A stretch of DNA of 18,204 bases, taken from IMG/VR virus record IMGVR_UViG_2547132272_000012; one strand, given 5' to 3'. The translations under genes were made by a program, and so were the position numbers. Positions 1-17,339 of the stretch are shown here, one piece after another (positions within the stretch are counted from its first letter, which is position 1; each line of letters starts with the position of its first letter). The notes under the pieces are model-generated. The model was not told the DNA's origin. It was given only the letters and a program-made list of their open reading frames with translations, and made no database searches. The stretch is from a virus (lineage: Duplodnaviria > Heunggongvirae > Uroviricota > Caudoviricetes).

Positions 1-510
1 GTCCACCGTGGGTTTTAATCCGAGGTTTTCAACGGCCTCATCCCTGTCTTCCACATCCGAAAGATTCCTGTCCTGACGCAGAAACAGACCATCCCCGGTC
101 GCCACATTCAGCGTGACCTGCGCACTTTCTTCCACTGCCAGCCGGAACTGCAGTGTGGCGGTAACGCCATTTACCGGTTTCTCAATGGCTGCACAACTTC
201 CGACGGCATAAAGCTCACCATCGGTGGTCAGCAACCCCGCTTCCCTGACCGTAAACCCCCCCACGCCCTCCGGCAGTACAAGATACGCAATAAACTGGTT
301 TTCCTGATCAGGCGATACCGTCAGACGTGAGATGGTGCCGCGATAAACTTCCCTGACCAGCGCCGTCTGCCCGGCCTCTGGTGTGACAGCATTTCCGTTT
401 CCGTCCCCCACCACAAACCCGTCCAGCACCACCGGCGCACCACCCGCCGCAGACGCAGCCTCGAGCGCTTTCCCTCTGTTTGTCAGAATACTGCAATGTT
501 TCGTGGTCAC
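1..510 (-). CDS. Tail fibre protein, N-terminal ~170 codons (P2 gpH-like); 3' part lies beyond the window start
   Basis: Minus-strand frame is open from 528 down to position 1 with no stop; it is not in the ORF track because it runs off the edge. Manual translation gives VTTKHCSILTNRGKALEAASAAGGAPVVLDGFVVGDGNGNAVTPEAGQTALVREVYRGTISRLTVSPDQENQFIAYLVLPEGVGGF..., which resembles the conserved N-terminal domain of P2-type fibre H as I recall it. Candidate start GTG at 510 (TTG at 528 also possible), directly after gene I. Confidence 0.7.
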   Translation of the reverse strand, partial: MTTKHCSILTNRGKALEAASAAGGAPVVLDGFVVGDGNGNAVTPEAGQTALVREVYRGTISRLTVSPDQENQFIAYLVLPEGVGGFTVREAGLLTTDGELYAVGSCAAIEKPVNGVTATLQFRLAVEESAQVTLNVATGDGLFLRQDRNLSDVEDRDEAVENLGLKPTVD

Positions 511-511
511 G

Positions 512-1069
512 TTATTCTCCCGCCTCAATCACCACATCAATATGCGCGGTCACCGCGCCACCAACATAAAACTGGCTGTCCTTTCCGATATCCGTATTTA
601 CGTCAATGGTGCTCAGACCGCTGCGTAAATTCTTGGCCTTAATGACCAGCGCCCTGACCTGACTGTAAAGCACACTGTCAGCACCTTCCCGCAAAAACAG
701 CTCCACACGAAAGGTGTACGGTTTTTTGCGCGGTGAATCCTGCCACCACTCTTTGATTGCAGCCGGAACACCAACCGCACTGAGCGCCCGCAGCACTGCC
801 CCCGCCGTTCCCCGGTGCTGATGCACATATGCCGCATCACGTAAAATTTGCCGCTTCTGCTCTTCACTCCAGTCATCCTGCCAGAAATCCACAGCAAACT
901 CCCAGGCCAGCCACGGCAACAGATGCAACGGACAGGTATCCGGATTTTTCACCTTTCTGACCATATCCGTATCAAGTGTCAGGATGCTTTCTGTTGTGGC
1001 CTGCTCCTGTGCCCGCTCCGGCCTGACAGCGGAAGGCGGCAGAAGTGAGCGAAACGTCTCCGCCATCAC
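512..1069 (-). CDS. Baseplate protein (P2 gpI-like)
   Basis: 185-aa ORF; start overlaps the stop of the J-like gene (ATGA at 1069); position between J and fibre H matches P2 order V-W-J-I-H. Confidence 0.65.
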   Translation of the reverse strand: MMAETFRSLLPPSAVRPERAQEQATTESILTLDTDMVRKVKNPDTCPLHLLPWLAWEFAVDFWQDDWSEEQKRQILRDAAYVHQHRGTAGAVLRALSAVGVPAAIKEWWQDSPRKKPYTFRVELFLREGADSVLYSQVRALVIKAKNLRSGLSTIDVNTDIGKDSQFYVGGAVTAHIDVVIEAGE

Positions 1070-1974
1070 TATACCTCTCTGCGCGTCACATTAACGGCAG
1101 CACAGCGGGGAGCCGTGCCGGTTGCCGGTTCGATATCAGCCCGGGGACTGGACAGAATAACCCGCGCCACACCAGTCTGTTGAAGTGCTGCGTAAATGGC
1201 GGACAGCGGCACCATGCCATTAATCCGGTTTGCCAGCCGGGTATAAGACATCAGCGTGCTTTTCGCATTTTCCAGCACTTCACCGGCATCCGGGCCGTCC
1301 GGTATTTCCAGTTCAGCCGTCACGGTATAGTCATTAATAATGGCGCTTTTCACCGTCACAAAATCCGTCAGCGGACGAATTTCATCAGCATTCAGCCGCG
1401 CACTGACCGCATCCAGCAACGCCTCGCTGGCAGTGCCATTTCCTTCACGGGACAATACGTAGACATCCACCTCCCCCGCACGCCCGTGCTCTTCCGGACC
1501 ATAGGCATCAGCATCCAGCACATTTTCATCAGCAGAGCGGGCATGAAAACGATAGGCATTGCGGGCGCCTGCAGTATTCAGTTGCGACCAGGACAACTGA
1601 ATACGTTCGCGAAAAGCCTCGTCCTCTTCCATAACCGCATCCGTCGGAGGCACGGCATCCGGATTTGCCGGAACAATCACCATACGTCCGACATTGAACG
1701 CCGCGCCAATCTGATCGAGATCGGCCTTCTGCGCACTTGCCAGAAAAACAGCCCGCACGGCATCATTCACCCGCTGAAAAGCCAGGGTGAGCTGAAAGGC
1801 GGTCACTTCGCCCTGCTTGTAAGTCGGGTCGGATTCCACCAGAGCATCAAATTCCGGATCCAGTTCGCGCAGACGTGCCAGCCAGGCCCCGAAAATCACC
1901 GATGCGTCAGGCACCACAATGGCATCCGGTACGGGCAAATCCGAAAGATTGATCACATCATAACTTTCTGCCAT
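1069..1974 (-). CDS. Baseplate assembly protein J (P2 gpJ / Mu gp47-like)
   Basis: 301-aa ORF with size and placement typical of baseplate J between W/gp25-like and I-like genes; 17-nt overlap with upstream W-like gene. Confidence 0.75.
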   Translation of the reverse strand: MAESYDVINLSDLPVPDAIVVPDASVIFGAWLARLRELDPEFDALVESDPTYKQGEVTAFQLTLAFQRVNDAVRAVFLASAQKADLDQIGAAFNVGRMVIVPANPDAVPPTDAVMEEDEAFRERIQLSWSQLNTAGARNAYRFHARSADENVLDADAYGPEEHGRAGEVDVYVLSREGNGTASEALLDAVSARLNADEIRPLTDFVTVKSAIINDYTVTAELEIPDGPDAGEVLENAKSTLMSYTRLANRINGMVPLSAIYAALQQTGVARVILSSPRADIEPATGTAPRCAAVNVTRREV

Positions 1975-2311
1975 AAACGGTTATTCCTCCTGTTGTTACC
2001 TGTGTACCGGTTTCCGTATTCGTCCCCGTGATATCCACCACACATCCGGCCTCATCTTCCGGAAACGTCACGATCACTTTTGACACTTTCAGCCGGGGCT
2101 CCCAGCGCGCCAGCGCCGTCGCCGTGGCAGCAATTATGCGCAGCCTCAGCAGGTCATCCCGGGGAGAGTCCAGCAATTCAAAAAGATCGCTGCCGTAATC
2201 CCTGACCAGAACACGGCTTCCCACTGGCGTGTTCAGAATATCGCTGACTGACTGGCGCAGATGCGCCGCACCGGACAGGCGCTTCCCCGTCCGGCAGTTC
2301 ACACCATTCAT
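1958..2311 (-). CDS. Baseplate wedge protein W (GPW/gp25 family)
   Basis: 117-aa ORF (P2 gpW is about 115 aa); ATG at 2311 lies 2 nt after the D-like stop; position D-W-J-I. Confidence 0.7.
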   Translation of the reverse strand: MNGVNCRTGKRLSGAAHLRQSVSDILNTPVGSRVLVRDYGSDLFELLDSPRDDLLRLRIIAATATALARWEPRLKVSKVIVTFPEDEAGCVVDITGTNTETGTQVTTGGITVYGRKL

Positions 2312-2313
2312 GA

Positions 2314-3486
2314 TTATTTTTTTCCTGATCCGGTACCAAAATAATCCGGCGGCGTTTTATCACCGGATTTTTTGCTTTTGATTTCAGCCACCAGATTAAA
2401 CGTGAAGGTAAAGCCTGAAGAAGAGAGGGAAAACGCCAGTGACTCCACGAGCCAGCGGCGATCTTCCCGCTTACCAAATCCGGATGTCACCACGCCGGAT
2501 TCGGCGGTCATGGCAACATATGAAGGACGGCACGGCCCTGTCAGCGTCATTTTCCGGCTGTTGCGTTGCGCCTGTGTTTTTTTTGACTTTGCCTGTTGTT
2601 CAGCCGTTTCCTTTTCCGGCTGCGTGTACGGACTGGTTACAGACGAGCCGTCATGCTCCACGGTTGCTGTTTTGGTTCGCCCGTCAGCCTTGTCAAAATA
2701 ACGAACCGTGATTTTTTCTTTCTTCTTTTCTCCGGTAGAGCTCCCCCGTTCACCTTCCTGATAATTCCAGGATGACACCACGGAAGGTGTCAGCGTCACG
2801 GTCTTCAGGGGCGCGCCCGATACGGTGGTTCCGGCACCCTGCTCCAGAAACAACCAGTAACCTCCGGCAGGTTTACTGACGGCGTTATACGTCCGGGCAA
2901 GGCGGGACAACAGGCTGGCATCCGATTCTGCCACCTGATCCACATGGGTAATGCGGATCCCCGCCAGCTTCTCCGCCACCCGGGCCTTCAGTCCGTTTTC
3001 CGTGGCAACAGTTTTCACCAGATCACCCAGCGTGAGATTATCCCAGCTTCGTGTTTTCTGATTCAGCACGTCGCCGGACTGCTTTTCCGCATTCATGGGG
3101 GCAGCAGTAGCATAAATTTCGATCCGACGCGGCGGGCCGCTGCTGCTCACGCCGCACACCACAAACCAGCCCTTGTCCACCAGATTACCGTTAAACCCCA
3201 GCGCCACCCGCAGACGCGCCCCCTTTGTCGGCAGGGGCAGTCTTTCAGAAAGCAGCGTGATCTTCAGTTCATCAGACCTGGCGGTGGCTCCGCCGTAATC
3301 CGTCAGGGTGATATCCACAAGATAACGGGCCAGCACCCGCGTGATATCCCGCCCTTCAGCTGTCACCCGATACGCCGGGCAGAATTCCCGGACAGTCGTG
3401 GCGATGGTTTCCTGTTTTTTCTCATTTTTCAGGGACGCCTGATACGCGGCATTTATTGCCTGCAGCTGTTCTGATAATGACGTCAT
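2314..3486 (-). CDS. Tail protein D (P2 gpD / late control D family)
   Basis: ORF track 2314..3507 (397 aa). I prefer the second of two tandem ATGs (3486), 5 nt after a GGAGG Shine-Dalgarno, giving about 390 aa (P2 gpD is about 387 aa). Confidence 0.75.
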   Translation of the reverse strand: MTSLSEQLQAINAAYQASLKNEKKQETIATTVREFCPAYRVTAEGRDITRVLARYLVDITLTDYGGATARSDELKITLLSERLPLPTKGARLRVALGFNGNLVDKGWFVVCGVSSSGPPRRIEIYATAAPMNAEKQSGDVLNQKTRSWDNLTLGDLVKTVATENGLKARVAEKLAGIRITHVDQVAESDASLLSRLARTYNAVSKPAGGYWLFLEQGAGTTVSGAPLKTVTLTPSVVSSWNYQEGERGSSTGEKKKEKITVRYFDKADGRTKTATVEHDGSSVTSPYTQPEKETAEQQAKSKKTQAQRNSRKMTLTGPCRPSYVAMTAESGVVTSGFGKREDRRWLVESLAFSLSSSGFTFTFNLVAEIKSKKSGDKTPPDYFGTGSGKK

Positions 3487-3497
3487 CATCTCCTCCC

Positions 3498-3713
3498 TTA
3501 ATCCCACAGGCTGTATGGCGACTCAGACACCTGTTGTGTGATTTCAGGCAACGCAATGCGGATCCCCGCCGGATAAACCGCGCCTTTCTCTGCCAGCCCC
3601 TGATTGGCCTCCAGCACAAGAGTGAGCACGGCAGACAGATTTTCCGTGCCGTAATGCGTGGCGCAAATCGCATCAAGCACATCCCCGTCACGGGTTATCC
3701 AGATCGTCGGCAT
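3498..3713 (-). CDS. Tail protein X (P2 gpX-like)
   Basis: 71-aa product MPTIWITRDGDVLDAICATHYGTENLSAVLTLVLEANQGLAEKGAVYPAGIRIALPEI... resembles the small tail protein X family (GDTLDAIC ... ANPGLAE pattern). Confidence 0.75.
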   Translation of the reverse strand: MPTIWITRDGDVLDAICATHYGTENLSAVLTLVLEANQGLAEKGAVYPAGIRIALPEITQQVSESPYSLWD

Positions 3714-4167
3714 AATGTTTCAGCTCCAGACTCCACTTTTTGTTACGGTGCCCACCGCCAGGCAAAAAACGGTCGGTGGAATCAGAAAAACGCTCCACCA
3801 CCCACCATCCCAGCACATCACCTTCTCCGCTGACCAGCAGTTGCGGCTCAGCCTTATTCGCTAGGTCATACAGCGTGTTCACCGCCTCCGTCCCCGACTT
3901 CCCCAAAAAGGCGTGCGATTCCCCTTCAAGGCGAACGGTTCGCCCGTTCTTCCCGGTGTACTGCAGCAGACTCTGCTGACCGATGCGCGCCTGCTCGCTC
4001 CAGGTCCACCCCGCCTCACGGGTCAGCTGGTTATATGCCGTGGTATCCACGGAAAAGGCGAAATCCCCCAGCATCAGCATGACTCTGGCATCTGCAGCAC
4101 CACGGAGATAACTGTTGTCACGCTGAAGGCTGTCTTCAGCGAGAGCAATAACCGAACCCACACTCAC
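3688..4167 (-). CDS. Tail protein U (P2 gpU-like)
   Basis: Contains MLMLGDFAFSVDT...W.W..Q.RIGQ, resembling the gpU N-terminal signature. Start re-assigned to GTG at 4167 (GGAGGA 8 nt upstream; GTGA overlap with tape-measure stop) instead of track start 4188; the internal ATG at 4080 is an alternative. Confidence 0.7.
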   Translation of the reverse strand: MSVGSVIALAEDSLQRDNSYLRGAADARVMLMLGDFAFSVDTTAYNQLTREAGWTWSEQARIGQQSLLQYTGKNGRTVRLEGESHAFLGKSGTEAVNTLYDLANKAEPQLLVSGEGDVLGWWVVERFSDSTDRFLPGGGHRNKKWSLELKHYADDLDNP

Positions 4168-5822
4168 CAGACACTTCCTCCATCCCACAACGCATTATTA
4201 CCACTGAAGGCCGGGTTGTTTTTCGTCATACCGGCAATGGCGTCCGCAATACCCTGTTCGCTCTGTCCGGGCTGCGCAACAATGTTGAAGTTATAATTCT
4301 TCACGCTGTTGTCATTCAGCTGTGCGCCGGACTGTCCGCCCTCAACAGGAATGGCCTGCACGGCAGCCTGCCATGCTCCCGCACTGGCAAAAGGATCATC
4401 CTGTTTTCCGGCAGATCCTGCCTGCGCTGCCGGCAACGAAAAATCGAACGTTTTTTCCGGCGTGAGGTAACTGTTCACCGATTCATGAAACGCATCCGTA
4501 TCCACAATGCCCATAAAGCCCTTCGCGGCGTTATATTTTTCACGGACATTCTTTTCAAAATCCGGATTATTTTTCAGTTGCTCATCAAGCCAGGCATCCT
4601 GCCCGCTGTTCCGGGCCACTGTCCGGGCAGCGGTCATGTCACCACGCCCGACATACTCCAGAATCTGCTTCTGATCGCCCTGTTCATCCGGTAATAACCA
4701 GGCGAGTTTTTTGGCTACTGCAAAAATAATTTTTCCGACAAAAATGACGCCTTCGCCGAACTTCAGGGCCGCCGGATACAGCGTGTCCCTCAGAAAAGAC
4801 ACAACCTTTTTAATGCCTCCGCCTTTAAACCACTCTGCCAGGTCACCCGCTGTCTCTTGTATGGCGGGGGCCAGCTCTGCGCCCAGTTGTCCGGAAATTT
4901 CTGCAACCGCAGAAGAAAAAACCTGCTGCAAATCAGAAACAGCCTTGTTTCCGGCGAGTGCGCCAGCCACACCCTCTTTTGTCACCAGGTTATATTTATC
5001 CTGCTCAGCCAGCAGTTCCTGAAAACTTTTTCCAGAACGTTTGATCAGCATCAGCAGTTTACTGGCTTCACCACCAAACAATGCATCCAGCGCAAACGAT
5101 GCCTTTGATTCATCCTTCAGTGACAGCGCCCTGTCGATAATTTTTTCGAACTGTTCCTTATCACTCAGTCCGGCAAGATCGCCTTCCTCAAATCCCAGCG
5201 TTTCAAAGGCGTCAGAAAGCGAACTCTGCTTGCCATTTTGTTTATATTCCCCGGCCTTATGCAGGTATTCCTCAAACAGATCCCCGATATTATCGCCGGT
5301 CATATCGTACTGTTTTGCCAGGGCGTCCCAGTTCATGTACGTGCGGGTATCCACGCCATACGCAGTCGCTTTACCCGCTGTTTCAGCCGTCTGCGCATTC
5401 ATGGCAGCCGGAGCAATCAGCGCACCAAGTGCCGTGGTCACGGCACCGCCCCCCATCGCCAGACCGGCATTCCAGGCAAATTTACCGGTTCCGGCAAGCA
5501 GGCTTTTTCCCTTCCCCATAAAACGTCCGAGCCGATCGCGACGCTCAAGGCTCCGGTTCAGTTTTTTCTGGGCCGCATCCGCTTTCTTAATTTCAGCCGT
5601 GAGCCGGGCGTATTCATCCTCCATCGACTTAAAACGTTTCCCTGCCAGCGCCGCCCGTTTCATTTCTGCCGCCAGCTCTGCCTGCTCTTTACGCAAACGC
5701 GCAGCCTGCTGCTCCACATCCTGCAGATTTTTTCGCAGATCCGTCGCCGAACGACGCCACGAACTGTCCAGTTTGCCCCCGAACGACACGGTGGCCTTAA
5801 GATTCTGGCTTACGCTTCCCAC
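4164..5822 (-). CDS. Tail tape measure protein
   Basis: 552-aa ORF with a coiled-coil-like N-terminus (QDVEQQAARLRKEQAELAAEMKRAALAGKRF...) and Ala/Gly-rich low-complexity centre; GTG start at 5822 with GGAGG 9 nt upstream; lies between chaperone and U. Confidence 0.75.
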   Translation of the reverse strand: MGSVSQNLKATVSFGGKLDSSWRRSATDLRKNLQDVEQQAARLRKEQAELAAEMKRAALAGKRFKSMEDEYARLTAEIKKADAAQKKLNRSLERRDRLGRFMGKGKSLLAGTGKFAWNAGLAMGGGAVTTALGALIAPAAMNAQTAETAGKATAYGVDTRTYMNWDALAKQYDMTGDNIGDLFEEYLHKAGEYKQNGKQSSLSDAFETLGFEEGDLAGLSDKEQFEKIIDRALSLKDESKASFALDALFGGEASKLLMLIKRSGKSFQELLAEQDKYNLVTKEGVAGALAGNKAVSDLQQVFSSAVAEISGQLGAELAPAIQETAGDLAEWFKGGGIKKVVSFLRDTLYPAALKFGEGVIFVGKIIFAVAKKLAWLLPDEQGDQKQILEYVGRGDMTAARTVARNSGQDAWLDEQLKNNPDFEKNVREKYNAAKGFMGIVDTDAFHESVNSYLTPEKTFDFSLPAAQAGSAGKQDDPFASAGAWQAAVQAIPVEGGQSGAQLNDNSVKNYNFNIVAQPGQSEQGIADAIAGMTKNNPAFSGNNALWDGGSVW

Positions 5823-5924
5823 GTTTTACTGCCTCCACTTCATCCAGTAAAAATGCCGTAAACACACTGAACGGCATGGACAGATAATCGGAAAGAGGAA
5901 AATGCAGCCGCCGCCCGAGAAACC

Positions 5925-6224
5925 TTAACCCTCTGAAGATTTCGGTTTCGGTCGCTTCCCGGGTGGCAGCATAAAAACATTAAAGGCATCCGTCAGCTGG
6001 GCATAATCCGCTGCGGTCAGCAGCCAGATATCCTGCTCACTCAGATTACAAAGCTGCGCAATCATACGCGCCTCTTTTTCCTCCTCTGTTCCCCGGTCTT
6101 TGGTGAAGGCAATGCGATCGCGCACCAGCGGTTCGCGCATGGTGATACGTTCCAGCACAGCACCGCCCCCCAGAGTGACCGGCGTGTACAGTGTGATGGT
6201 GCGGGTTTCACCCGGAATATTCAT
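5925..6224 (-). CDS. Tail assembly chaperone (P2 gpE-like); probable frameshift-extended E+E' form
   Basis: 99-aa ORF immediately after the tube gene and its terminator; AAGGAG 6 nt upstream of ATG 6224; followed by an atypical 102-nt gap before the tape-measure gene that is open in alternative frames. Confidence 0.7.
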   Translation of the reverse strand: MNIPGETRTITLYTPVTLGGGAVLERITMREPLVRDRIAFTKDRGTEEEKEARMIAQLCNLSEQDIWLLTAADYAQLTDAFNVFMLPPGKRPKPKSSEG

Positions 6225-6236
6225 AATCTGCTCCTT

Positions 6237-6260
6237 AAAAAAAACGGCCCGCAGGCCGTT
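6237..6260 (-). terminator. Intrinsic terminator after tail tube gene
   Basis: On the minus strand: AACGGCC-TGCG-GGCCGTT stem-loop followed by T8, 17 nt after the tube stop and immediately before the chaperone RBS. Confidence 0.65.
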
Positions 6261-6276
6261 ATGCGTTAATCAGTGC

Positions 6277-6783
6277 TCAGAGACGCACTTTTGCCGACAG
6301 GCCGGCGAGAACATTCACGCCGTTGATCCGACGCTCAAAACGCTCGGTATCAATCATAATGAGTTCGATCCCCTCCAGCGTCTGACGGTAATAATTCACC
6401 GCGATTTCCACTGTCACCGCATTTTCTGACAGGCTGCTGTTTCCACGTGCATCCGGCGTCACCGTTTTCACAAAACCTTCGATTTCTTCGGTGGTCCCCA
6501 GCGCGGTGCCGTTTGCCAGATAGCCCTGATAGGCCGTGAAGCGGGAGCGGTTGCCACTGACAAATCCGAGACTGGACAGCATGTCTGTATCCAGACCATA
6601 GAATTTAATCTGGCAGGTCAGCGCCTCCATGCCGTCGTCAACCGGCGTGGGGGCATCCTGTGCCCCGGTGCGTAAATCAGTGGTGGTTATGGACAGCGTG
6701 GGGGGCGTGAACTCATGCGCTCCCTGAATACGGATCCCCTGGCGGAAAAAAGTCCAGGCCCGTAATGTGTTTTTACTGCTCAT
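6277..6783 (-). CDS. Tail tube protein (P2 gpFII-like)
   Basis: 168-aa ORF, ATGA overlap with sheath stop; size and position typical of contractile tail tube; C-terminal ...IDTERFERRINGVNVL... resembles the FII family. Confidence 0.8.
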   Translation of the reverse strand: MSSKNTLRAWTFFRQGIRIQGAHEFTPPTLSITTTDLRTGAQDAPTPVDDGMEALTCQIKFYGLDTDMLSSLGFVSGNRSRFTAYQGYLANGTALGTTEEIEGFVKTVTPDARGNSSLSENAVTVEIAVNYYRQTLEGIELIMIDTERFERRINGVNVLAGLSAKVRL

Positions 6784-8240
6784 GTTGCCGTCATCTCCTT
6801 AATGCCGTATTCGTTGTTGACGCTCACCCGCATGCTGATAAGTTCAGTCGGCGATTTGGGACCGAAGTCATAGTTGATGTACAGTTCACCGGCTGCCAGC
6901 GTTTCGGCGGTATTCAGTTCCGGATCCAGCCATGCCCGCCCCCCGAAGATGGCACCTTCTGCCACCAGACGGCGCATATACGCATTAATGGTGCCAATAA
7001 TGTCGTCCGCATTCTGGCGATCGAGCGGGCGGTCAACATACGCCAGCATCGCCTCCTGGATACTGTCTTCAATCACATCCGCAGTACGGCGGACGGACTC
7101 GAAATGCCACTGAGGATGGGACGAGCACAGCCGGTTTCCCCAGTGTTTAAATCCGGCGCGGCGGATCAGGGTGGAGACATTCTGCATATTAAGCAGGTTG
7201 GCATCGCAGTTACGCTCACCGAGGATAAATTCATCCACCTGCTCAACACCGAGGATGTTGTAAACCTCCTGGTTTGATTTGCTCCACCACCACCCTTTTT
7301 CATAGTCAATACGGGCACGCAGTCCGGCAGCAAAGGCCGAATACGGGCGATACACCAGTTGCCCCTCTGCATTACTGACCTGCACACGCGGGCGCAGTAA
7401 TTCAGTCCTGGCACCGTAAGACTGGCGACGCTGCACCACATCCTGCAGTGTCGCGCCCGCAGCACAATCCACGTACGCCACTGCACGCAGTTTTCCGGCC
7501 ACCGTTTCCAGTGCCTTACCCACCGCATCGTCTTCACTGAATCCTGGTGCAATCACAATACGTGGCTGATACGTGGTGACGGATTTTGCCGATGACAGCA
7601 TGCTGATCCCCGCAAGAATGGCAGCACGCTGCTCTTCCGGCTTCGTTTTTTCTTCCACCCGGACGATCACCGACAGCGCGTTACGCTGGTCGTTAATCTC
7701 CGTCAGCGCCTGCTTCAGTGTTCCGGTGATCCCCAGACGTGAAAGCGCCGTTGTTCCCGCCATCGCCACTGGCGTGTTCAGCGGAAACGGTTCATCTTCA
7801 CCGCCACTCAGTGTGCCGGAAAACGGCGACACAATACCGTCACCGCTGCCGGTGGCACTCACCCCGGCCCCCGCCACACCATTCACCGCCGTCACAACAT
7901 CACTGACGGTGGCATTGCCTGCCCCCTCTTCACTGCATCCAAGCCAAATCAACAGGCTTCCGTTTTCCCATTTTGCTGACGTGGGAACCGCACCCGCACT
8001 TTTTTCTTTGACAGCCTGTTCAGCAATAACGGTAATGGTATTTCCGCTCCGTCCCCCCGCTTTTGCCGTAAAGGTCAGCTCGTTATCCAGCAGCGGCGTT
8101 CCCGCTGTCAGTGTCGCTGCCACAGCTCCGGCAGCCTGCGGCGCGGTTCCCACCACACCAATAATGGCTGTCTCTATTGTGGTTACTGCCACCGTGCCTG
8201 CTGTCAGCTCGATGGTTTCCACACCATGTAATTGCCCCAT
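6780..8240 (-). CDS. Tail sheath protein (P2 gpFI-like)
   Basis: Contains LIRRAGFKHWGNRLCS and AGELYINYDFGPKSP, closely resembling conserved sheath motifs. Start re-assigned to ATG 8240 (MGQLHGVETIEL...; GGAGA 6 nt upstream) rather than track start 8282. Confidence 0.85.
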   Translation of the reverse strand: MGQLHGVETIELTAGTVAVTTIETAIIGVVGTAPQAAGAVAATLTAGTPLLDNELTFTAKAGGRSGNTITVIAEQAVKEKSAGAVPTSAKWENGSLLIWLGCSEEGAGNATVSDVVTAVNGVAGAGVSATGSGDGIVSPFSGTLSGGEDEPFPLNTPVAMAGTTALSRLGITGTLKQALTEINDQRNALSVIVRVEEKTKPEEQRAAILAGISMLSSAKSVTTYQPRIVIAPGFSEDDAVGKALETVAGKLRAVAYVDCAAGATLQDVVQRRQSYGARTELLRPRVQVSNAEGQLVYRPYSAFAAGLRARIDYEKGWWWSKSNQEVYNILGVEQVDEFILGERNCDANLLNMQNVSTLIRRAGFKHWGNRLCSSHPQWHFESVRRTADVIEDSIQEAMLAYVDRPLDRQNADDIIGTINAYMRRLVAEGAIFGGRAWLDPELNTAETLAAGELYINYDFGPKSPTELISMRVSVNNEYGIKEMTAT

Positions 8241-8257
8241 TTGCATTCTCCGGACAT

Positions 8258-9461: not shown

Positions 9462-9475
9462 TGCGTCCTCACATT

Positions 9476-10159: not shown

Positions 10160-10180
10160 TGCGATATCTCCTTATGAAGT

Positions 10181-10537
10181 TTATTTTTTACTCCATTCGA
10201 TGGTCGGTAATGACGTCCCCCGTCCACGCCCGAGCGTTACGCGTGTACGCCCCATTTCATCCGCACCAATATGCGTGACGCGGTAAAATTCGTGGTTCAG
10301 CTCCACTGTGCAGTTTGTGCTGAGCCCCTTAATATCCTCTGTCAGTGCGCTGAATGCCGGAGCCTGATCGTTAATTTCTCCACCACCCGGAACACGAACC
10401 GGCGCATCCGGAGATTCAAAAATCACCATAACAGGGCGACGCTCGCTGCCAATAGACAGTATCGCCGGACACTCCTCGGAAAAAAGCCGGGAAATGCGGG
10501 CATCTGCCCGCATCAGCCGTTTATGAAATCGATGCAT
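10181..10537 (-). CDS. Putative head-tail joining / head completion protein
   Basis: Track ORF 10181..10558 begins with TTG; I prefer ATG 10537 (ATGA overlap with upstream stop), giving about 118 aa. Size and position are consistent with a lambda FII-like connector; assignment is positional only. Confidence 0.4.
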   Translation of the reverse strand: MHRFHKRLMRADARISRLFSEECPAILSIGSERRPVMVIFESPDAPVRVPGGGEINDQAPAFSALTEDIKGLSTNCTVELNHEFYRVTHIGADEMGRTRVTLGRGRGTSLPTIEWSKK

Positions 10538-10866
10538 CAGTACCCCAGACGCACACAAACACAGGCATCTCCGGCTTCAGCCGATGCCCATACTGTTCCC
10601 ACCAGCGTATTACCTGATTTCGTTGCGGTCAGTGTTGCCGTATCCGCTTTGAAATACACCAGCTTGCCTTGCGTTAGCGCCTCTGCCTCTTTAGGTAAAG
10701 AGAAAACCCCCACCGTATGCAGAATGCCCACATCCCCGTCCGGAATATCAGCGTGAGCAACACCAACAAGATTATCCTGAACAACCAGATCGCCAGATGA
10801 CACCGCCTTCCCGGTCCCGTTCACCCAGTCGACGTTTTTTCCGTCCTGAACAAAATTTTTTGACAT
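10537..10866 (-). CDS. Putative head decoration protein (lambda gpD-like)
   Basis: Preferred start ATG 10866 (MSKNFVQDG...; GGAGA 6 nt upstream) rather than 10911, which abuts the terminator T-run. About 109 aa (lambda gpD is about 110 aa) with DGDVGILHTVGV resembling the DGAAVGILAV region of lambda gpD. Confidence 0.45.
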   Translation of the reverse strand: MSKNFVQDGKNVDWVNGTGKAVSSGDLVVQDNLVGVAHADIPDGDVGILHTVGVFSLPKEAEALTQGKLVYFKADTATLTATKSGNTLVGTVWASAEAGDACVCVRLGY

Positions 10867-10883
10867 TTTTTTCTCCGGTAAAT

Positions 10884-10936
10884 GCGGCGCAAAGTGCGCC
10901 GCTTCAGCCATAAAAAAAACCGCCCTGTCCGGCGGT
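10884..10936 (-). terminator. Intrinsic terminator after major capsid gene, plus a second perfect stem-loop
   Basis: Minus strand: capsid stop, then ACCGCC-GGACAG-GGCGGT hairpin (10919-10936) followed by T8 (10912-10919); then a perfect 7-bp inverted repeat GCGGCGC-ACTTT-GCGCCGC (10884-10902) before the downstream RBS. Confidence 0.65.
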
Positions 10937-10939
10937 TAT

Positions 10940-13030
10940 TTATTGTTTTTTCACTTTGACCATGCCACGCCAGTCAAGCGGTGCCACTCCGGCATCAATG
11001 CGCACCTTGAATGCTGCACCATCAACCGTAAAGCCCTGTTGCTGCTCCAGATACGGCGTATCAATACCGTCGAGGTAAGCCACTTCAATCGTGTCACGCC
11101 CCTGCGCTGCCACCAGGTAATAATCCGTCGGGCTGCTGTCATCAAGGCGGGCCTCTGACAGAACCGTGGCAAAATTCTGAATCGGGTTAATAATGCCGCT
11201 GTTCGCATCTGCACCGGGCACGCTGGCAGACTTAATCAACTGATTGGCACGCGACTCAATGGCAACAGGCGTCAACATAAAAGCAGGACGAATGTTCAGG
11301 CGGCGGTCACCCGATTTCTGGAGCAGCATGGCTTTACGCCCGGAATCCAGCCCCTCAATAGACAAATCTGCAGTCACCAGGTTGCCATGATCTGCATGGA
11401 ACAGCGGTTTGCCATCCGACATTTTCGGATTGCTGGTCAGCACGGCCCAGACCAGATCACCCACGGTAGTCCGCGCTGCCGCCCCCATTGCCATCGGAAT
11501 ACGGGTCAGCATATCCAGGTCATCATTGATGATGGTCTGGCGATCAATGCTGAACAATTCGCCATAAGTCGCCAGTGCAATCGGTTCGCCACGATCTTTC
11601 AGGGTCACATATTTATATTCAGCCCCCGGCAATACTTTTCGTAGCGTCGGGAAAGTTTCCAGCCCGACACGATGCGCGGTTTTAAAATCAGTCAGCGTTC
11701 CCTTGCGGGTCCATTTGTCAAAATTTTCGCTGGCATCATCCCAGCCCTGCAACGCAGCTTTATGAGCCACATCCATCAGGATATTGCCGAAATCGCTGCT
11801 GCTGTGAGTAAATGCCAGCCCCACCATCGCCATCGGTGCGGAATGACCGGAGATACCGATACCGCGATCAACCAGCGAAGCACGCGCCAGCTCGCGCAGT
11901 GTAAAACCGTTATAAGCATTATCTTTTTCTGCTTCGGCATATCCGGCGCGTGCCATCACAGCCGCACGAATGGAATCGCCGACCAGATTACCGTTCCCGG
12001 CATGAATATGAACAGCGCCCGGGCCTGCACTTGGTGTCGTTCCGGCTGCCAGCGCCTGCAACAGTTTTTCACGGGCCTGTGCTTCCGTACAGGTCATGTC
12101 GTTCAGACACTCCGCTTTCAGTGCGGCATAAGACGGGAAAGAGGCAAAAACTGCGGTTACAGCCTGCACACGTTCCGCATTGGCTGCCATCAGTTGTTGC
12201 TGAACCTGCGAAGCAATTGCGCTGATATCCACATTTCCGGTTGATGGTGCCTGCTGAGCAGCGATCTGTTGCGCATTTTGCGGGGTTGCTTTCGGCTCCT
12301 GCGGCTGTCCGTTTGTCGTTTCTGCACGTGGAGCAAAAAGCGCGTTAATCTGTTCTGGCATATTATGGTAATCCTTCAGTTTATTTTGGTTCACACAGGC
12401 CGCAGCCTGTAATTCAGGTTCAAGCGTATCAGCGAAGCCTTTTTCCACGGCTTCAGCACCGTTCAGCCAGGTTTCTGCTTTCAGCATGGCTTCCAGCTCC
12501 TCCTGCCCGAGTCCGGTTTTATTCATGTAGGCTGACAGCATCAGCGCCTCGTTGCGATCCAGCCAGTCAGCATAATCACGCATATCATCGGAATCACCGG
12601 CGATCCCGCCCCACGGCTTGTGCACCATCAGCCAGGAATTTTCAGGCATATGCACTGTGGCGCCTGGCAGGCAGACAATCATGGAGGCCATGCTGGCTGC
12701 AACACCATCCACCCAGATATCCACCTTCGCTTTCAGCCGTGACAGCGTGTTAAAGATGGCAAACCCCTGCATCACATCACCGCCCGGGCTGTGGATATGC
12801 AGATCAATAGCGCTGGCCTCAAACACCCCCGCATCCTTACAGTCAGCAATAAACTGCTGCGCGGTGATGCCCCATCCGCCAATCACGTCATAGAGGTAAA
12901 TTTCCACCCGCCCGGCAGTCTGTGCACGGATTTCATACCAGCACTGACCATTAGCGGCATCCACCCCCGCAAGGCTGGCGCGGGGATTAATCATCGTCCC
13001 GCGAAGACGCGGGTTTATCATTTGCTGCAT
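10940..13030 (-). CDS. Fused prohead protease (ClpP/S49-like) - scaffold - major capsid polyprotein
   Basis: 696-aa ORF. N-terminus (HIHSPGGDVMQGFAIFNTL...DIWVDGVAASMASMIVCLPG...HMPENSWLMVHKPWGG) looks like a ClpP/S49 serine protease fold; the middle is Ala/Gln-rich; the C-terminal ~300 aa is capsid-like. ATG 13030 has AAGGAG 9 nt upstream and overlaps the portal 3' end by 44 nt. Confidence 0.8.
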   Translation of the reverse strand: MQQMINPRLRGTMINPRASLAGVDAANGQCWYEIRAQTAGRVEIYLYDVIGGWGITAQQFIADCKDAGVFEASAIDLHIHSPGGDVMQGFAIFNTLSRLKAKVDIWVDGVAASMASMIVCLPGATVHMPENSWLMVHKPWGGIAGDSDDMRDYADWLDRNEALMLSAYMNKTGLGQEELEAMLKAETWLNGAEAVEKGFADTLEPELQAAACVNQNKLKDYHNMPEQINALFAPRAETTNGQPQEPKATPQNAQQIAAQQAPSTGNVDISAIASQVQQQLMAANAERVQAVTAVFASFPSYAALKAECLNDMTCTEAQAREKLLQALAAGTTPSAGPGAVHIHAGNGNLVGDSIRAAVMARAGYAEAEKDNAYNGFTLRELARASLVDRGIGISGHSAPMAMVGLAFTHSSSDFGNILMDVAHKAALQGWDDASENFDKWTRKGTLTDFKTAHRVGLETFPTLRKVLPGAEYKYVTLKDRGEPIALATYGELFSIDRQTIINDDLDMLTRIPMAMGAAARTTVGDLVWAVLTSNPKMSDGKPLFHADHGNLVTADLSIEGLDSGRKAMLLQKSGDRRLNIRPAFMLTPVAIESRANQLIKSASVPGADANSGIINPIQNFATVLSEARLDDSSPTDYYLVAAQGRDTIEVAYLDGIDTPYLEQQQGFTVDGAAFKVRIDAGVAPLDWRGMVKVKKQ

Positions 13031-14498
13031 CAGGGATCACTCCTTTATCGTTAGCGGCGTCAGAATCGAACACCAGCCCGTTTTCCCGGTTAAATTCAGT
13101 TTCACGCAGTCGCTGACGTTTGACCTCCTGCGGTGACTGCCCACGGGCACGTATCCACTCGGCCTCCGTCCCGGCACCACCGCGAAGAATGGCCCGCCAT
13201 GCTGCAGCCTCCTTCACCGGATCAATCCACGGCATCACCGGGCCAAGATAAGTGGCATTGAAAAGCGTGGACATATCCACATCAGGAGGAATTTCAAGAA
13301 AAGGTATCGCCTGCTCCAGCCATGCCCGGTACACCGGGCGGCTGTACTGACCGACAAACCACTGCTGTAAAACCCCGTAGCCTTCGTAACCTTCCACCAG
13401 CTCCTGACGCTGCGAACTGTAGGAGCCGTTATAGTCACGGGCAATACTGGAATAACTGCCACGGGTTCCGGCAGCCACAGCACGCAACTGCCCGTTCCGG
13501 AATTCATAAAGATGAACATTCGGACGATTCGACTCCACCATCCCCAGATCTTCACCGGGGGCCAGTTCGTCAAAAATCATGCCCGGCGAAATATCAAAGT
13601 ACCGGGGTTTTTGTTCTGTGGGTGTCCAGTCGTTATCCGTCGGAAAGCTGGCGGCATCACCACGCTTAATGTAGAAACCCAGCGCGGCAGCAATACGGGC
13701 AGCCACACGCTCTGATTCTTCATAATCTTTCAGATCAGCAATCCGGCGAATCACACCATGTAACAGGCTGACACCTCTCACCTGATGAAGCCGTTTCCGC
13801 ATCGCCAGATGAAGCATGTTGTCTGCGTGAACAGTTTTGAGATCGGCGCTGAATCCACGCATATTTGCAGGATGGTATTTATAAACCCGATACCCTACAG
13901 GCCGCCCCCAGTTGTTAAGAATAATGCCCTGGCGGACTTGCTGACCCGCGTTCGTGTTCAGACTGACCGGAACAAAATCTGCTTCGAGAAGTTCCAGTGA
14001 TAATGGCACCACAGTGGAATGATTCAGACCGGCGACAGGACCACGCACCAGTTGTACGAACATCTCGCCATCACGCAAAGCAGATCGCAATGCCATCCGT
14101 TCGGCCTCCGGGCGGGTGAACATCCCCGTGACCTCAGGGCGAACAGACCATTCAGACCACAATGCCGAGATCTGCTCTGCCAGCGATTCATGCAGGGTGC
14201 CATCGCTTCTCAGTGGTTGTGGTTCGACCTGGATCCCCTGCGCACCAATAACCCGCTCTTCCAGCTTATCCAGCAGACCAATCACGATATCGTGATCTTC
14301 ATCCAGCGCCCTGGCCTGCTCCCTTAACGAGGTACCGGCAGAAAAAACCGCTGTATCGGCAGAACGGCTCTCGCGCCGCGCCTTATTCAGGCGTGAAGGC
14401 TGCGCCGCCTCATAAGCTCTCAGCAGTATTTTGTTTCTGGCGCGCGAAACTGCCCACCCTGGCGCAATTGCGCCAAGTGCTTTATCAAAAAAACCCAT
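12987..14498 (-). CDS. Portal protein (lambda gpB family)
   Basis: 503-aa ORF directly after gpW-like and terL; ATG 14498 with GAGG 7 nt upstream; size and order match the lambda A-W-B arrangement. Confidence 0.8.
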   Translation of the reverse strand: MGFFDKALGAIAPGWAVSRARNKILLRAYEAAQPSRLNKARRESRSADTAVFSAGTSLREQARALDEDHDIVIGLLDKLEERVIGAQGIQVEPQPLRSDGTLHESLAEQISALWSEWSVRPEVTGMFTRPEAERMALRSALRDGEMFVQLVRGPVAGLNHSTVVPLSLELLEADFVPVSLNTNAGQQVRQGIILNNWGRPVGYRVYKYHPANMRGFSADLKTVHADNMLHLAMRKRLHQVRGVSLLHGVIRRIADLKDYEESERVAARIAAALGFYIKRGDAASFPTDNDWTPTEQKPRYFDISPGMIFDELAPGEDLGMVESNRPNVHLYEFRNGQLRAVAAGTRGSYSSIARDYNGSYSSQRQELVEGYEGYGVLQQWFVGQYSRPVYRAWLEQAIPFLEIPPDVDMSTLFNATYLGPVMPWIDPVKEAAAWRAILRGGAGTEAEWIRARGQSPQEVKRQRLRETEFNRENGLVFDSDAANDKGVIPDAANDKPASSRDDD

Positions 14499-14506
14499 AA
14501 AAAACC

Positions 14507-14731
14507 TCAGGAGAAACGGGCGAGTTTGTACGGTTTCCTTGTGGGCTGGCAGGCCGCCGCCCAGCGTTTTTCCCAGTATTCAAGCTCCCTGCGTAATGCA
14601 ACAGGATCATGGTTGGTGATCGCCCTGCCATTCACCCCGGTAAAAGACACACTTTTACCATCCAGGGAATCCCTGTATGCCTGTCGCACGATAACCAGCA
14701 TCTGGAAAATCTCATCTTTTTTCACAACCAT
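14507..14731 (-). CDS. Head-tail joining protein (lambda gpW-like)
   Basis: 74-aa ORF between terL and portal, exactly where lambda W sits; central DGKSVSFTGVNGRAIT resembles the lambda W core. Start ambiguous: ATG 14731 overlaps terL by 10 nt with zero-spacer GGAGG; ATG 14701 is the alternative. Confidence 0.5.
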   Translation of the reverse strand: MVVKKDEIFQMLVIVRQAYRDSLDGKSVSFTGVNGRAITNHDPVALRRELEYWEKRWAAACQPTRKPYKLARFS

Positions 14732-16839
14732 CCTCCGTTTCGGGGTAGTGATAACCAGTTTCCGGATAACGCTTCCGGCGACGCTGCTTTTTGCCGCTCA
14801 TCTCTTCCGACAACGTTTTTCTTGTCCACTGTGTCGGAAGAACGTCTGTCTGCCGAAGTCCCCGCGTCAGCATCCTGCCCTCTTGCCCACTGGGGAGGGT
14901 TGCTCCAGTCACGGATTTTTTCATAGCCACGCAGAATGGCGACGGCATGGGCATAGCAAAAAAGGTCAAACGCTTCGTTATTCCCTTTTCCCGGCTTGCG
15001 CCATTTCCCGTCAGCACCACGTTCCTCATAGGTCAACTCTTCATAAAACCACTCCCCTAGCCAGTCAGGAAAATGAATGTAGCCCGGTCCGGGCATTTCA
15101 CGTTGCAGGTTATTGCTTAGTTGATCTTTCAGCAGATCTGTCTGCAGGAGATATACCGGCACCTTCCCCTGAGCATCCGCACGGCGATCGCTTCGCCCGG
15201 TATTATCCGGGTGTGTGATGGTAATAATTTTCTGGCGTTTCGTGCTGTCTCCCTTTACCAGAAAAACCCGTCGCCCCAGTCCATCCTGACGACATTTTCG
15301 CCAGAATTTATAGGCGTTATCCGTCACCCCGTCCTCACCACCACTGTCCACCGCCATTGCCAGTACAGGCATTCTGCGGGCCGGATCGGACTGGAGCGGA
15401 TACGTTTTCTCCAGTACATCGGTGACCAGCAACTGCCAGTCTTCAGGGTAAGCTCCGGGATGCACAGGTAATGCTTCGCCATTTTCATCGCAACGCAATG
15501 ACTGTCGGATGTTATAACGGTCCACCAGCCAGCGTTCGCCGTCCTCGCCATAGCCAATAATCTGCACCACAAACCGTCGGTTCTTCCCGCCCTGCACGTC
15601 CACAGCCGCAATAAGAAAACGCACTTTCGGCGGTACCAGGCGCTTACCGTAATCCTCAGCCCGCTGCATCAGAACATCTGCACTGCGCAACTCCATGGCG
15701 GAACGAGGCAAATAAGGCAATCCCCAGTCGGTGTTAATCACCGCCTTCAGTGTTTCCTCACTGCCTGTGGCTTCATATTCCTGCTCAGCAGTCAGTAGTT
15801 TGTAAACCAGTTGCGCCCAGGTCTGATAGGCTGCAGCGGGGCCTTCCATCCAGAAGCTGGCTATCCTTGAATGACGTGGCGTTCCGGTAACATTCCCTTC
15901 TCTGTCAATCTGCTCACCTTCACGCAACCAGACGCCGCGACCATTCAGTTCACGTTTCATGTCTGCGGTGATTCGGTTGCCACAATGAGGGCATAATATA
16001 TGAGCCGCTTCACTGGCTTTTACAGGATCAGGATTGTCACGATACCCCGTCATAGCCTCCATCGATGGCTGGAAATAATCACCGCAATCCGGACAAGGCC
16101 AGTACCAGCGACGACGATCGCCACGGTTATACAGAGAAAGGATCCCCGTGGTGGGCGGGGCTTCATGCGGTGACGTTCTGCGCCATTTGCTGTTTGTGAT
16201 TTCACGCCCGGGAGAACTCTCCACCAGCGTCATACCAGCTGACATAAATGTGGTGGTACGTTTTGAAGCCAGGGAGAAACCATCACCTTCGCCATCGATA
16301 TCTTCAGGAAATCGGTCGTAATCAGTCAGCGCCACACATTTAAAATCAGAGGATGACATGACATTGATGGAGGGCCAGCCGATTTTCAGAAAGCTGCCTG
16401 ACAGAAAATATTTGTCATGAACGTTGTTATCGTTGCGGCGTGGACTGAGGCGTTTTCTGACCTCCGGACTGCAACGAAATGTTCTTGCCAGGCGCTTTTT
16501 GGAGTGCTCCTGCGCCTTATCCTGCGTCATCTGCACCAGCAAAAAGTCTGACGGATCGCAAACAATGTTATAAACCACCCAGCCATCAATCAGGCCGTTA
16601 GTCTTGCCCGTACGGGCAGGGCCAACAAAAACAACCGCATCAAACTCACGGGACGACAGGCAGTTCATGGGTTCAATCACATACGGTGCAACCAGCGGAT
16701 CCCACGGAACAGAGTTGCCACCAGATGTAGGGACTCGCATAAATTTTTGTACCGCTTCGGCAACAGGCATCCTGCGCGGCGCTTTAATTAACTGGCCCGT
16801 ATCCAGTTTCAACGATCTGGCGGTCGCCTGCACAGGCAT
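14722..16839 (-). CDS. Terminase large subunit (lambda gpA family)
   Basis: 705-aa ORF with ATPase P-loop-like VGPARTGKT, an acidic block TDYDRFPEDIDGEGDG resembling lambda YDELAAFDDDIEQEG, and a Cys/His cluster WPCPDCG...CPHCG; ATGA overlap with terS. Confidence 0.9.
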   Translation of the reverse strand: MPVQATARSLKLDTGQLIKAPRRMPVAEAVQKFMRVPTSGGNSVPWDPLVAPYVIEPMNCLSSREFDAVVFVGPARTGKTNGLIDGWVVYNIVCDPSDFLLVQMTQDKAQEHSKKRLARTFRCSPEVRKRLSPRRNDNNVHDKYFLSGSFLKIGWPSINVMSSSDFKCVALTDYDRFPEDIDGEGDGFSLASKRTTTFMSAGMTLVESSPGREITNSKWRRTSPHEAPPTTGILSLYNRGDRRRWYWPCPDCGDYFQPSMEAMTGYRDNPDPVKASEAAHILCPHCGNRITADMKRELNGRGVWLREGEQIDREGNVTGTPRHSRIASFWMEGPAAAYQTWAQLVYKLLTAEQEYEATGSEETLKAVINTDWGLPYLPRSAMELRSADVLMQRAEDYGKRLVPPKVRFLIAAVDVQGGKNRRFVVQIIGYGEDGERWLVDRYNIRQSLRCDENGEALPVHPGAYPEDWQLLVTDVLEKTYPLQSDPARRMPVLAMAVDSGGEDGVTDNAYKFWRKCRQDGLGRRVFLVKGDSTKRQKIITITHPDNTGRSDRRADAQGKVPVYLLQTDLLKDQLSNNLQREMPGPGYIHFPDWLGEWFYEELTYEERGADGKWRKPGKGNNEAFDLFCYAHAVAILRGYEKIRDWSNPPQWARGQDADAGTSADRRSSDTVDKKNVVGRDERQKAASPEALSGNWLSLPRNGGWL

Positions 16840-17339
16840 TATTCGTCCTCCTGATTTTCCTCCTCTGTATCTTCCTGTTTGCTGTCATCTGCCACCCGCC
16901 GCGCAATTTCGTCACGCAAATCATCAATAATGCTTTGCACCCGCATGACAGCCGAAGGCTCGAGAGCGCAATCGCGTTCAAGAATATCGGGGAGAGTTTC
17001 CAGAACCTGCACCATAGCCTTTGCCATTTCAGCAAATTCACGGGCGACATCAGACGCAGGGATCAGTTCTCCGACCTCCTGTTCAAATTTCAGACGTTCC
17101 CGTTCTGACTGATACCAGGCTTTTCGGTCATGGGGATCCATTTCCCCTTCAGCGACAGGCGGTGGCAACTTCATTAGCTCTGCCAGAATATCAGTAAGTT
17201 TATACAGCTTGAGGTTACTCTCATGCCCACCCGCTGTTCGGACATTTTTGATTCTTGATGCGACAGTCTGTCGGTGCACACCCGACAGCGCAGCTAACTG
17301 GCTGACATTAAGAACAAGGTGTTTCAATTCCTTATCCAC
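16839..17339 (-). CDS. Terminase small subunit (Nu1-like, N-terminal HTH)
   Basis: 166-aa ORF directly upstream of and overlapping terL; N-terminal helix-turn-helix-like VSQLAALSGVHRQTVASRI and acidic C-terminus; GTG start 17339 with GGAGG 5 nt upstream. Confidence 0.7.
   Translation of the reverse strand: MDKELKHLVLNVSQLAALSGVHRQTVASRIKNVRTAGGHESNLKLYKLTDILAELMKLPPPVAEGEMDPHDRKAWYQSERERLKFEQEVGELIPASDVAREFAEMAKAMVQVLETLPDILERDCALEPSAVMRVQSIIDDLRDEIARRVADDSKQEDTEEENQEDE

Follow-up and report, generated by a model that had tools for sequence, protein, structure and literature searches.

Lambda-type heads and P2/Mu-type contractile tails are both known from described phages, and several of these resemble in part the locus studied here, an 18,204-nucleotide stretch of Caudoviricetes DNA (IMG/VR record IMGVR_UViG_2547132272_000012; "the window" hereafter means this whole stretch). 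All long open reading frames (ORFs) of the window lie on the minus strand in one tightly packed block read from 17339 to 1, as seen from the ORF list and translations. The order is small terminase (terS), large terminase (terL), W-like adaptor, portal, ClpP-capsid fusion, cement protein, FII, Z-like protein and collar, then a contractile tail through H. The window holds the virion genes of an Escherichia coli prophage, very probably the late operon of an Enterobacterales myovirus that is temperate and lambdoid and belongs to the group of Citrobacter phage Chris1 (ON041214) and Hafnia phage yong2 (MZ516527), with a generic Type-1 neck and with modules exchanged at the FII/Z boundary. Its lambda-type head with a P2/Mu-type contractile tail is an already sampled, conserved phage design with a standard neck. 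The architecture, the neck and near-identical sequences are already public, and we found no unexpected gene or arrangement.

On the head side, phage cdtI, the Stx2a phages and Pseudomonas phages F10 and MD8 have the same set as the window: a DUF1441 terS, a gpA-type terL, W, a lambda-family portal, a fusion of a ClpP-like protease with a major capsid protein (MCP), plus a cement protein. The amino acid (aa) identities between cdtI and the window are 73% for terL, 51% for the portal, 52% for the capsid fusion and 44% for the cement protein. The cdtI-type siphoviruses also have an FII-Z-terminator neck in the same order, but this is followed by lambda's non-contractile tail (V, G/T, H, M, L, K, I, J). 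Lambda differs from the window in its separate C/Nu3, D and E genes and its Nu1-family terS.

On the tail side, the P2, R2 pyocin and Mu tails share with the window the families of the sheath, tube, E, U, X, D, V, W, J and I, and the window's collar is homologous to R2-pyocin PA0615. The sheath-tube-chaperone-tape measure-...-hub-wedges-fibre order of Mu and phiP27 resembles that of the window. However, the heads of P2 and Mu are unrelated to the window's, which is without the P2 head set (Q portal, P terminase, O scaffold, N capsid). The window order, V/sheath...D/W-J-I-H, also differs from the P2-type order V-W-J-I-H/sheath...D seen in the Escherichia coli A19 prophage and in phage vB_EcoM-ep3; P2's own tail gene order is similar to the latter. 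The P2 gpR and gpS families gave no match in the window, whose tail-proximal neck proteins match gpZ/HK97-gp10 and PA0615. Thus the P2 gene order, gpR/gpS and the P2-type head by which Peduoviridae are recognised are absent. R-type pyocins and other tailocins lack a head, whereas the window has a complete head/packaging module contiguous with the tail; a tailocin reading was considered and rejected.

Two described systems that share the junction are the Jilinvirus (Iiscvirinae) vB_EcoM-ep3 and Wolbachia phage WO. Like the window, both have a gpA-type terminase, a lambda-family portal, FII (PF05354), Z (PF06763), a collar homologue and V. In both, the junction leads into the P2-type baseplate order V-W-J-I, and ep3 has the full P2-type tail order; the sheath-to-D block of WO lay outside the region compared. 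Both are distant from the window (22-56% aa), and many of their proteins are not detectable by tblastn. The WO head is lambda C/D/E, unlike the ClpP fusion of the window. The idea that ep3 has the window's head type was rejected, as its 682-aa fusion of an S78 protease and an HK97 capsid is not similar to the ClpP fusion. Transmission electron microscopy has confirmed that jilinviruses are myoviruses (PMC11990801), and the published modules of WO, a head, a connector/baseplate and a tail, show homology to lambda, T4, P2 and Mu (PMC9203015). Phages of the phiP27/SfV type are, like the window, lambdoid temperate genomes with a contractile tail, but the head of phiP27 is of HK97 type, with a separate protease and capsid and an Ad1 adaptor, and its tail is of Mu type. 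Its structural genes showed no detectable nucleotide (nt) similarity to the window, whose right end (17700-18204) is 91.5% identical in nt to the region upstream of the phiP27 cos. A literature search for lambda-like heads with contractile tails returned nothing relevant, and no paper mentioning yong2 was found.

Relatives of the whole block

Protein families were searched with Pfam, PHROG and NCBIfam, homologues with blastn, tblastn and HMMER, and structures with Foldseek. A sequence-only reading of positions 1-17339 had described lambda-type head and packaging genes joined to a P2/Mu-type tail, and the family searches bore this out at the positions it gave. The motifs it quoted were found in the translations, LIRRAGFKHWGNR and GELYINYD in the sheath and HPGDSGGTT in the V spike.

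We compared head and tail separately. The best phage matches of the capsid fusion and of the sheath alike were Chris1 (MCP 85% aa, sheath 76%) and yong2 (MCP 69%, sheath 66%). A 21-gene block from terS to the fibre has the identical order in the window, Chris1 and yong2, and each gene from terS to I was found by tblastn in both phages at 43-85% aa. After these two, the best matches of the capsid fusion were siphoviruses at 53-56% aa (Pseudomonas phages F10, JBD68 and MD8, and the Stx2a and cdtI lambdoid phages), and those of the sheath were myoviruses at 37-54%. The prediction that head and tail would lead to different lineages therefore holds for the deep affinities but not for the top matches, Chris1 and yong2 in both cases. 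In essence, head and tail lead to one phage group with one gene order, the outcome that the sequence-only reading had named as telling against itself, although Chris1 and yong2 are unclassified Caudoviricetes without a genus of the International Committee on Taxonomy of Viruses rather than a well-described genus. Both differ from the window in host, in fibre and in the accessory genes carried (ars genes in Chris1), and the nt similarity is about 64-76% and patchy.

To sample other hosts, we scanned one genome per bacterial species with a collar-family profile (17-sequence alignment), which gave 16 loci. The architecture and order of the window were found in 12 of them, all from other Enterobacterales species, with heads 65-88% and tails 43-83% identical; two of the 12 end at contig ends. 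They come from Scandinavium, Enterobacter, several Citrobacter, Pantoea, Rosenbergiella, Tatumella, metagenome-assembled genomes and others. One further locus is a 2.1-kb Providencia contig with only Z-like, collar and V genes. Since these 12 loci, Chris1 and yong2 keep the same order at graded identity, head and tail have diverged together. The window's head-tail combination is the commonest in the loci sampled, and it is old, because head and tail proteins diverged together across genera. A contractile tail on a lambdoid head, which had been regarded as unexpected, is thus shared in the same order by Chris1, yong2 and these 12 loci, and the junction recurs in ep3 and WO. Isolated phages (Chris1, yong2, Jilinvirus, phage WO) already show the design, as do many prophages of Enterobacterales.

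Neck genes at the junction

The three ORFs at the head-tail junction had been considered to lack a clear family. We assigned all three to known neck families, as follows.

10181-10537, minus strand: gpFII-type head-closure protein (Hc1), the last gene of the head module (Phage_attach PF05354, 2e-6; phrog_82 'head closure Hc1', 1.5e-24)
9476-10159, minus strand: gpZ/HK97 gp10-type neck protein (Ne1, tail completion), 227 aa, the first gene of the tail module (phrog_27)
8892-9461, minus strand: putative tail terminator/collar, homologue of R2-pyocin PA0615, 189 aa (phrog_1072, function unknown; PDB profile match 6u5f_A)

The FII ORF also has a weak NCBIfam tail_join_FII match. Pfam by itself gave no match for two of the three ORFs. 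The Z-like protein matched phrog_27 'tail completion or Neck1 protein' along its full length (3e-24), and Pfam Minor_tail_Z (lambda gpZ) was matched by six of its 29 homologues (best E-value 4.7e-10). Foldseek found nothing for the Z-like protein, so the structural backing for this assignment is moderate; the profile of its 227-aa family gave nothing meaningful against PDB sequences. At residues ~100-140 of the Z-like protein (window ~9740-9860), we noted an arginine-rich stretch, RGRIRGQRVRRHDLRDPVTGRFIKENRVRRRRRK, which lies within the lower-confidence part of the predicted model. Through this stretch the protein exceeds in length both the gpZ Pfam model (190 positions) and the HK97 gp10-family chain 9mu2_P (109 residues).

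For the collar, a profile of close homologues was compared with all PDB sequences and had a sole, collinear match, 6u5f_A 'Collar PA0615' (E-value 7.5e-4). After the profile was widened with 88 full-length relatives from an exhaustive HMMER search, the resulting 89-sequence profile gave the same single match at an E-value of 7.8e-31 (residues 3-169 against 4-164 of 171). Weak Pfam matches of the family to Mu Gp37 and Phage_tail_terminator agree with a terminator role. Because structure prediction failed for this protein (AlphaFold2 from the 17-sequence alignment; predicted local distance difference test score, pLDDT, 45), its identification as a PA0615-type collar/tail terminator draws on sequence profiles. 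Several mechanical ORF starts were over-extended compared with the RefSeq calls in a 97%-identical E. coli prophage, and the collar ORF is an example (8892-9557, better taken as 8892-9461). Two ORFs called 'hypothetical' in phage records and by the Prokaryotic Genome Annotation Pipeline (PGAP) can now be named, the gpZ/Ne1 neck protein and the PA0615-type collar/tail terminator.

The neck order W ... FII - Z - terminator is lambda's own (W ... FII Z U). Lopes et al. (2014; PMC4362835) described the Type-1 neck, Ad1/W-Hc1-Ne1-Tc1, as common to siphoviruses and myoviruses, with W/FII/Z/U in lambda. The window has this neck, with the W-like gene followed, past the head genes, by FII (Hc1), the Z-like gene (Ne1) and the collar in the Tc1 position. 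Since Type-1 necks occur in both morphotypes, the special adaptors that had been expected to make the two lineages compatible are not needed.

Exchange of head and tail modules at the FII/Z boundary

We located the boundary between the modules by blastn comparison with two E. coli prophages.

10195-10223, no strand: recombination seam between the head and tail modules (blastn against the AJ1 and A19 prophages)

The AJ1 prophage (NZ_OZ547217) shares window 1-10195 at 97.6% nt identity; beyond that point, up to 17550, the two are unrelated. For its head, AJ1 has the genes of the canonical lambda set (Nu1-type terS, A, W, B, S49 gpC, D, E, FI, FII). The AJ1 proteins from the Z-like protein through I are 93-100% identical in aa to those of the window, whereas terL is 24% and the portal 22% identical, and the other head proteins have no detectable similarity. 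The reverse was found for the A19 prophage (NZ_CP028756), which is 89% identical in nt over 10223-17530 and divergent before that. Its proteins from terS through cement are 84-96% identical in aa, its Z-like protein 38% and its tail proteins 35-63%, and its tail order is V-W-J-I-fibre-sheath-tube-E-T-U-X-D. Because the similarity to AJ1 and A19 breaks at 10195 and 10223, the exchange point is at the 3' end of the FII gene, at the FII/Z boundary, mapped to about 30 bp. FII stays with the head module, and the Z-like and collar genes stay with the tail module. The seam does lie within 8892-10537, where it had been placed; it is a single point and is not spread over the three ORFs.

Two head types and two tail gene orders occur among the relatives, and all four combinations are present. 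Besides that of the window, we found the lambda C/D/E head with the window-order tail in Erwinia (L017), the lambda head with the P2-order tail in Serratia proteamaculans and the ClpP-fusion head with the P2-order tail in Serratia rubidaea (loci L023 and L024 for the two Serratia). These results show that whole head and tail modules were swapped at the FII/Z boundary; they are exchangeable there because the interface is the generic Type-1 neck of siphoviruses and myoviruses. In lambda, separately assembled heads and tails meet at FII and the terminator. By analogy, the position of the seam matches what would be expected if the two assembly pathways meet at these proteins here too. With the exchange point mapped so closely, these relatives form a natural four-way head-by-tail set for studying the specificity of head-tail joining.

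The last five codons of FII contain the recombination breakpoint. The end of FII (ORF 10181-10537; FII end in window 10181-10225) carries a conserved peptide, G-x-P-G-x(4-5)-I-x2-W-S-(K/R), which is kept in 20 of the 21 FII proteins encoded beside Z/collar genes of this clade and was seen at the same position in loci L002-L005 and L010-L024. It is kept across the ClpP-fusion and lambda C/D/E head types (AJ1, Erwinia L017, Serratia L023), where the FII bodies are 31-49% identical. It is absent from Jilinvirus ep3 and from A19, whose Z-like protein is the most divergent. It is possible, if rather doubtful, that this peptide is the element docking the head to the collar/Z ring of the tail. If so, a portable 'plug' of a few residues would account for the way in which one contractile tail can receive unrelated heads, and the peptide could be used to engineer head-tail compatibility.

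We considered whether the window is instead an unusual, possibly recent chimera of normally incompatible lineages, joined by novel adaptors encoded in three family-less ORFs. Beyond the syntenic relatives, the head does lead to siphoviruses and the tail to myoviruses; in E. coli, AJ1, which shares the tail only, demonstrates recent recombination at the seam; and Pfam alone leaves two of the junction ORFs blank. However, all three of these ORFs belong to known neck families, the arrangement is kept with co-divergence in two isolated phages and the 12 loci of other species, the same junction cassette is present in Jilinvirus and phage WO, and Type-1 necks serve both morphotypes. A chimera of this kind is therefore largely refuted, and we regard it as very unlikely.

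Occurrence in E. coli

The whole block was found in three of 5426 complete E. coli genomes (P393-F10, NY1601 and WGI31CT), at 96-98% nt identity over 97-99% of the window, and PGAP annotation gives the same gene set. These copies differ from the window by small indels, and 17530-17700 and the fibre N-terminus are more divergent. One of the three adjoins the trp operon, at a disrupted ompW, inside a full lambdoid prophage. In P393-F10, the prophage surroundings of the block comprise a Q-like antiterminator, RusA, replication O/P-like genes and a holin/endolysin cassette. The tail half is present in seven E. coli genomes, with the window head intact in three, with a window head disrupted by the insertion sequence IS3 in one and with a lambda C/D/E head in three. 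The head half, taken by itself, is present in four. About 700 other E. coli matches (60-80%) are to the terminase region of other lambdoid prophages.

Some of the E. coli matches are decayed. LR882057 is a decayed copy with the IS3 insertion in its head region. In STEC307/308, two O-serotype strains of Shiga toxin-producing E. coli, a sheath-tube-chaperone fragment is all that is left, beside a shikimate transporter gene. Such relatives, the rarity of the block in E. coli and a pseudogene annotation of the ORF upstream of terS in P393-F10 could suggest a defective prophage or a domesticated element, for example a tailocin beside a head-gene remnant, that forms no infectious virions. On the other hand, no structural ORF in the window is broken, neighbouring ORFs touch or overlap in the way expected of translational coupling within an operon, P393-F10 has a full set of lambdoid regulatory, replication and lysis genes around the block, and Chris1 and yong2, with the same gene set, were deposited as phage genomes. 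The title of a paper by Yu et al. (2023, cited in PMC10284793) states that Chris1 transmits a resistance determinant, which also counts against a defective element. We consider such an element highly improbable. The chance that the window is an assembly artefact, or two adjacent unrelated prophages taken as one module, is negligible, as the block is contiguous in three independent complete E. coli chromosomes, in phage genomes and in 12 other species, its genes share one strand, the junction is free of any integrase, tRNA or att-like break, and no point in support was found.

Head and packaging genes

The head and packaging module of the temperate lambdoid myovirus comprises the following features.

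16839-17339, minus strand: terS, DUF1441-type small terminase in Nu1's place (PF07278, 4e-46; phrog_141 'terminase small subunit', 5e-70)
14722-16839, minus strand: terL, lambda gpA type (GpA_ATPase PF05876, 1.5e-78; GpA_nuclease PF20454, 1.2e-88; phrog_15, 1e-292)
14507-14731, minus strand: gpW-like head-tail adaptor, 74 aa (phrog_118 'head-tail adaptor', 5e-18)
12987-14498, minus strand: portal, lambda gpB family (Phage_portal_2 PF05136, 2e-89; phrog_21, 4e-116)
10940-13030, minus strand: ClpP-like protease/scaffold/major capsid fusion, 696 aa (CLP_protease PF00574, 1e-28; Phage_capsid_4 PF25209, 2e-51; NCBIfam NF045540, 9e-282)
10537-10866, minus strand: capsid cement/decoration protein, DUF2190 (Phage_cement_2 PF09956, 4e-27; phrog_122 'head decoration', 1e-36)
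17458-17480, minus strand: candidate cos site (where the linear yong2 record's ends and the cdtI record's start align)

The gpW-like gene is placed between terL and portal, as in lambda; its product had no Pfam or NCBIfam match. In the capsid fusion, CLP_protease covers residues 73-202 and Phage_capsid_4 residues 385-693. Separate gpC protease/Nu3, gpD and gpE genes were not found in the window, which has the single ClpP-scaffold-MCP fusion and the PF09956 cement protein instead. Two earlier names hold as functional analogies. The 'Nu1-like' terS is a small terminase but belongs to DUF1441, with no match to Phage_Nu1 (PF07471), and the 'gpD-like' protein has the decoration function but falls in PF09956 rather than the lambda gpD family. 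The candidate cos stretch is G-rich and about 125 nt upstream of terS, and the aligned record ends at ...CACCGAGGGGATACGGATG|CGCAG.... It is a putative cleavage site.

Contractile tail genes

The contractile tail is encoded from the V spike, beside the collar gene, to the fibre at the window's left end.

8279-8899, minus strand: baseplate spike, P2 gpV type (PF04717, 3e-7; TIGR01644 phage_P2_V, 1e-23)
6780-8240, minus strand: contractile sheath (PF04984, PF17482; phrog_23, 5.5e-108)
6277-6783, minus strand: tail tube, P2 FII type (PF04985, 8e-20)
5925-6224, minus strand: tail assembly chaperone E (PF10109, 2e-13)
about 5981-5797, minus strand: putative -1 frame extension E' (ORF conserved in Chris1 and yong2)
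4164-5822, minus strand: presumed tape measure, 552 aa (phrog_3654, 1e-205, function unknown; weak tape measure PHROGs, 1.6e-8 and 5.5e-7; position)
3688-4167, minus strand: P2 gpU-type tail protein (PF06995, 3e-30)
3498-3713, minus strand: tail protein X (PF05489, 3.5e-15)
2314-3501, minus strand: baseplate hub, gpD type (PF05954, 8e-8; phrog_52, 6.5e-103)
1958-2311, minus strand: baseplate wedge gpW/gp25 (PF04965, 6.5e-16)
1069-1974, minus strand: baseplate wedge gpJ (PF04865, 2e-25)
512-1069, minus strand: baseplate wedge gpI (PF09684, 7.5e-40)
1-510, minus strand: tail fibre, N-terminal 170 residues, in the gpH position, running off the window (phrog_1780 and phrog_381, ~1e-43)

All ten Pfam families of the sheath, tube, E, U, X, D, V and W/J/I were above gathering scores. 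As in P2 and Mu, the presumed tape measure gene is flanked by the genes of the chaperone and gpU. Its RefSeq names vary ('hypothetical', 'AAA family ATPase', 'ATP-binding protein'). Because the protein had no Pfam match and only the weak tape measure PHROG matches, the ATPase names look like annotation artefacts.

A -1 frame ORF (5797-5981) overlaps the 3' end of E and extends into the start of the tape measure gene. The E' sequence (..RFLGRRLHFP..DYL.MPFS.F..) and a T-run, GTTTTTA (5972-5978), are kept in Chris1 and yong2, and the slippery sites of relatives are the canonical T-TTT-TTG in A19 and T-TTT-TTA in ep3. This ORF is probably a P2-like E/E' programmed -1 frameshift, putative and with a non-canonical slippery site.

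The ~150 N-terminal residues of the sheath (window ~7770-8240) were matched only in Chris1, yong2 and Pseudomonas phage ZRG1; every other sheath match begins at about residue 156. This suggests that the N-terminal ~155 residues may form an extra surface domain. Among the relatives, the tail consists of two blocks in either order, V/sheath-tube-E-tape measure-U-X-D/W-J-I-H as in the window or V-W-J-I-H/sheath...D (L004, L006, L023, L024), and V always adjoins the collar gene in both. The order with V at the collar and sheath-to-D ahead of W-J-I-H is specific to the window's subgroup.

Proposed assembly of the particle

We propose that the DUF1441 small and gpA-type large terminases would package DNA from a cos site through the lambda-family portal. 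The shell would be made from the self-processing ClpP-scaffold-capsid fusion and stabilised by the cement protein, and the gpW-like adaptor and a gpFII hexamer would close the filled head. In the tail pathway, V (spike), D (hub), X, U, the wedge proteins W, J and I and the H fibre would make up a baseplate, on which the tape measure together with the E/E' chaperones, the tube and the sheath would be nucleated. Next, the PA0615-type collar would cap the tube and sheath, and the gpZ-type Ne1 protein would complete the tail. Finished heads and tails would join, with FII on the head side and the collar and Z on the tail side, where FII and the collar may be in physical contact.

Several points weigh against the reading of the window as the late operon of such a phage. 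The contractile morphology and inducibility are predictions from the genes; the full block is rare in E. coli; the tape measure assignment is mostly positional; and the E' frameshift heptamer in the window is non-canonical (T-TTT-A). For the collar, the structural model was unusable, and close relatives of PA0615 may be among the sequences of the iterated profile that gave the strong E-value.

The right end of the window

Upstream of terS, ORF 17592-17990 (132 aa) belongs to phrog_1935, of unknown function. This ORF and the sequence beyond it are 90-91% identical in nt to phiP27 and to an Actinobacillus phage. No tRNA genes or Rfam families are present in the window. The E. coli prophages that are otherwise near-identical differ from one another in a single part of the window, the stretch 17530-17700, which carries the pseudogene annotation in P393-F10.

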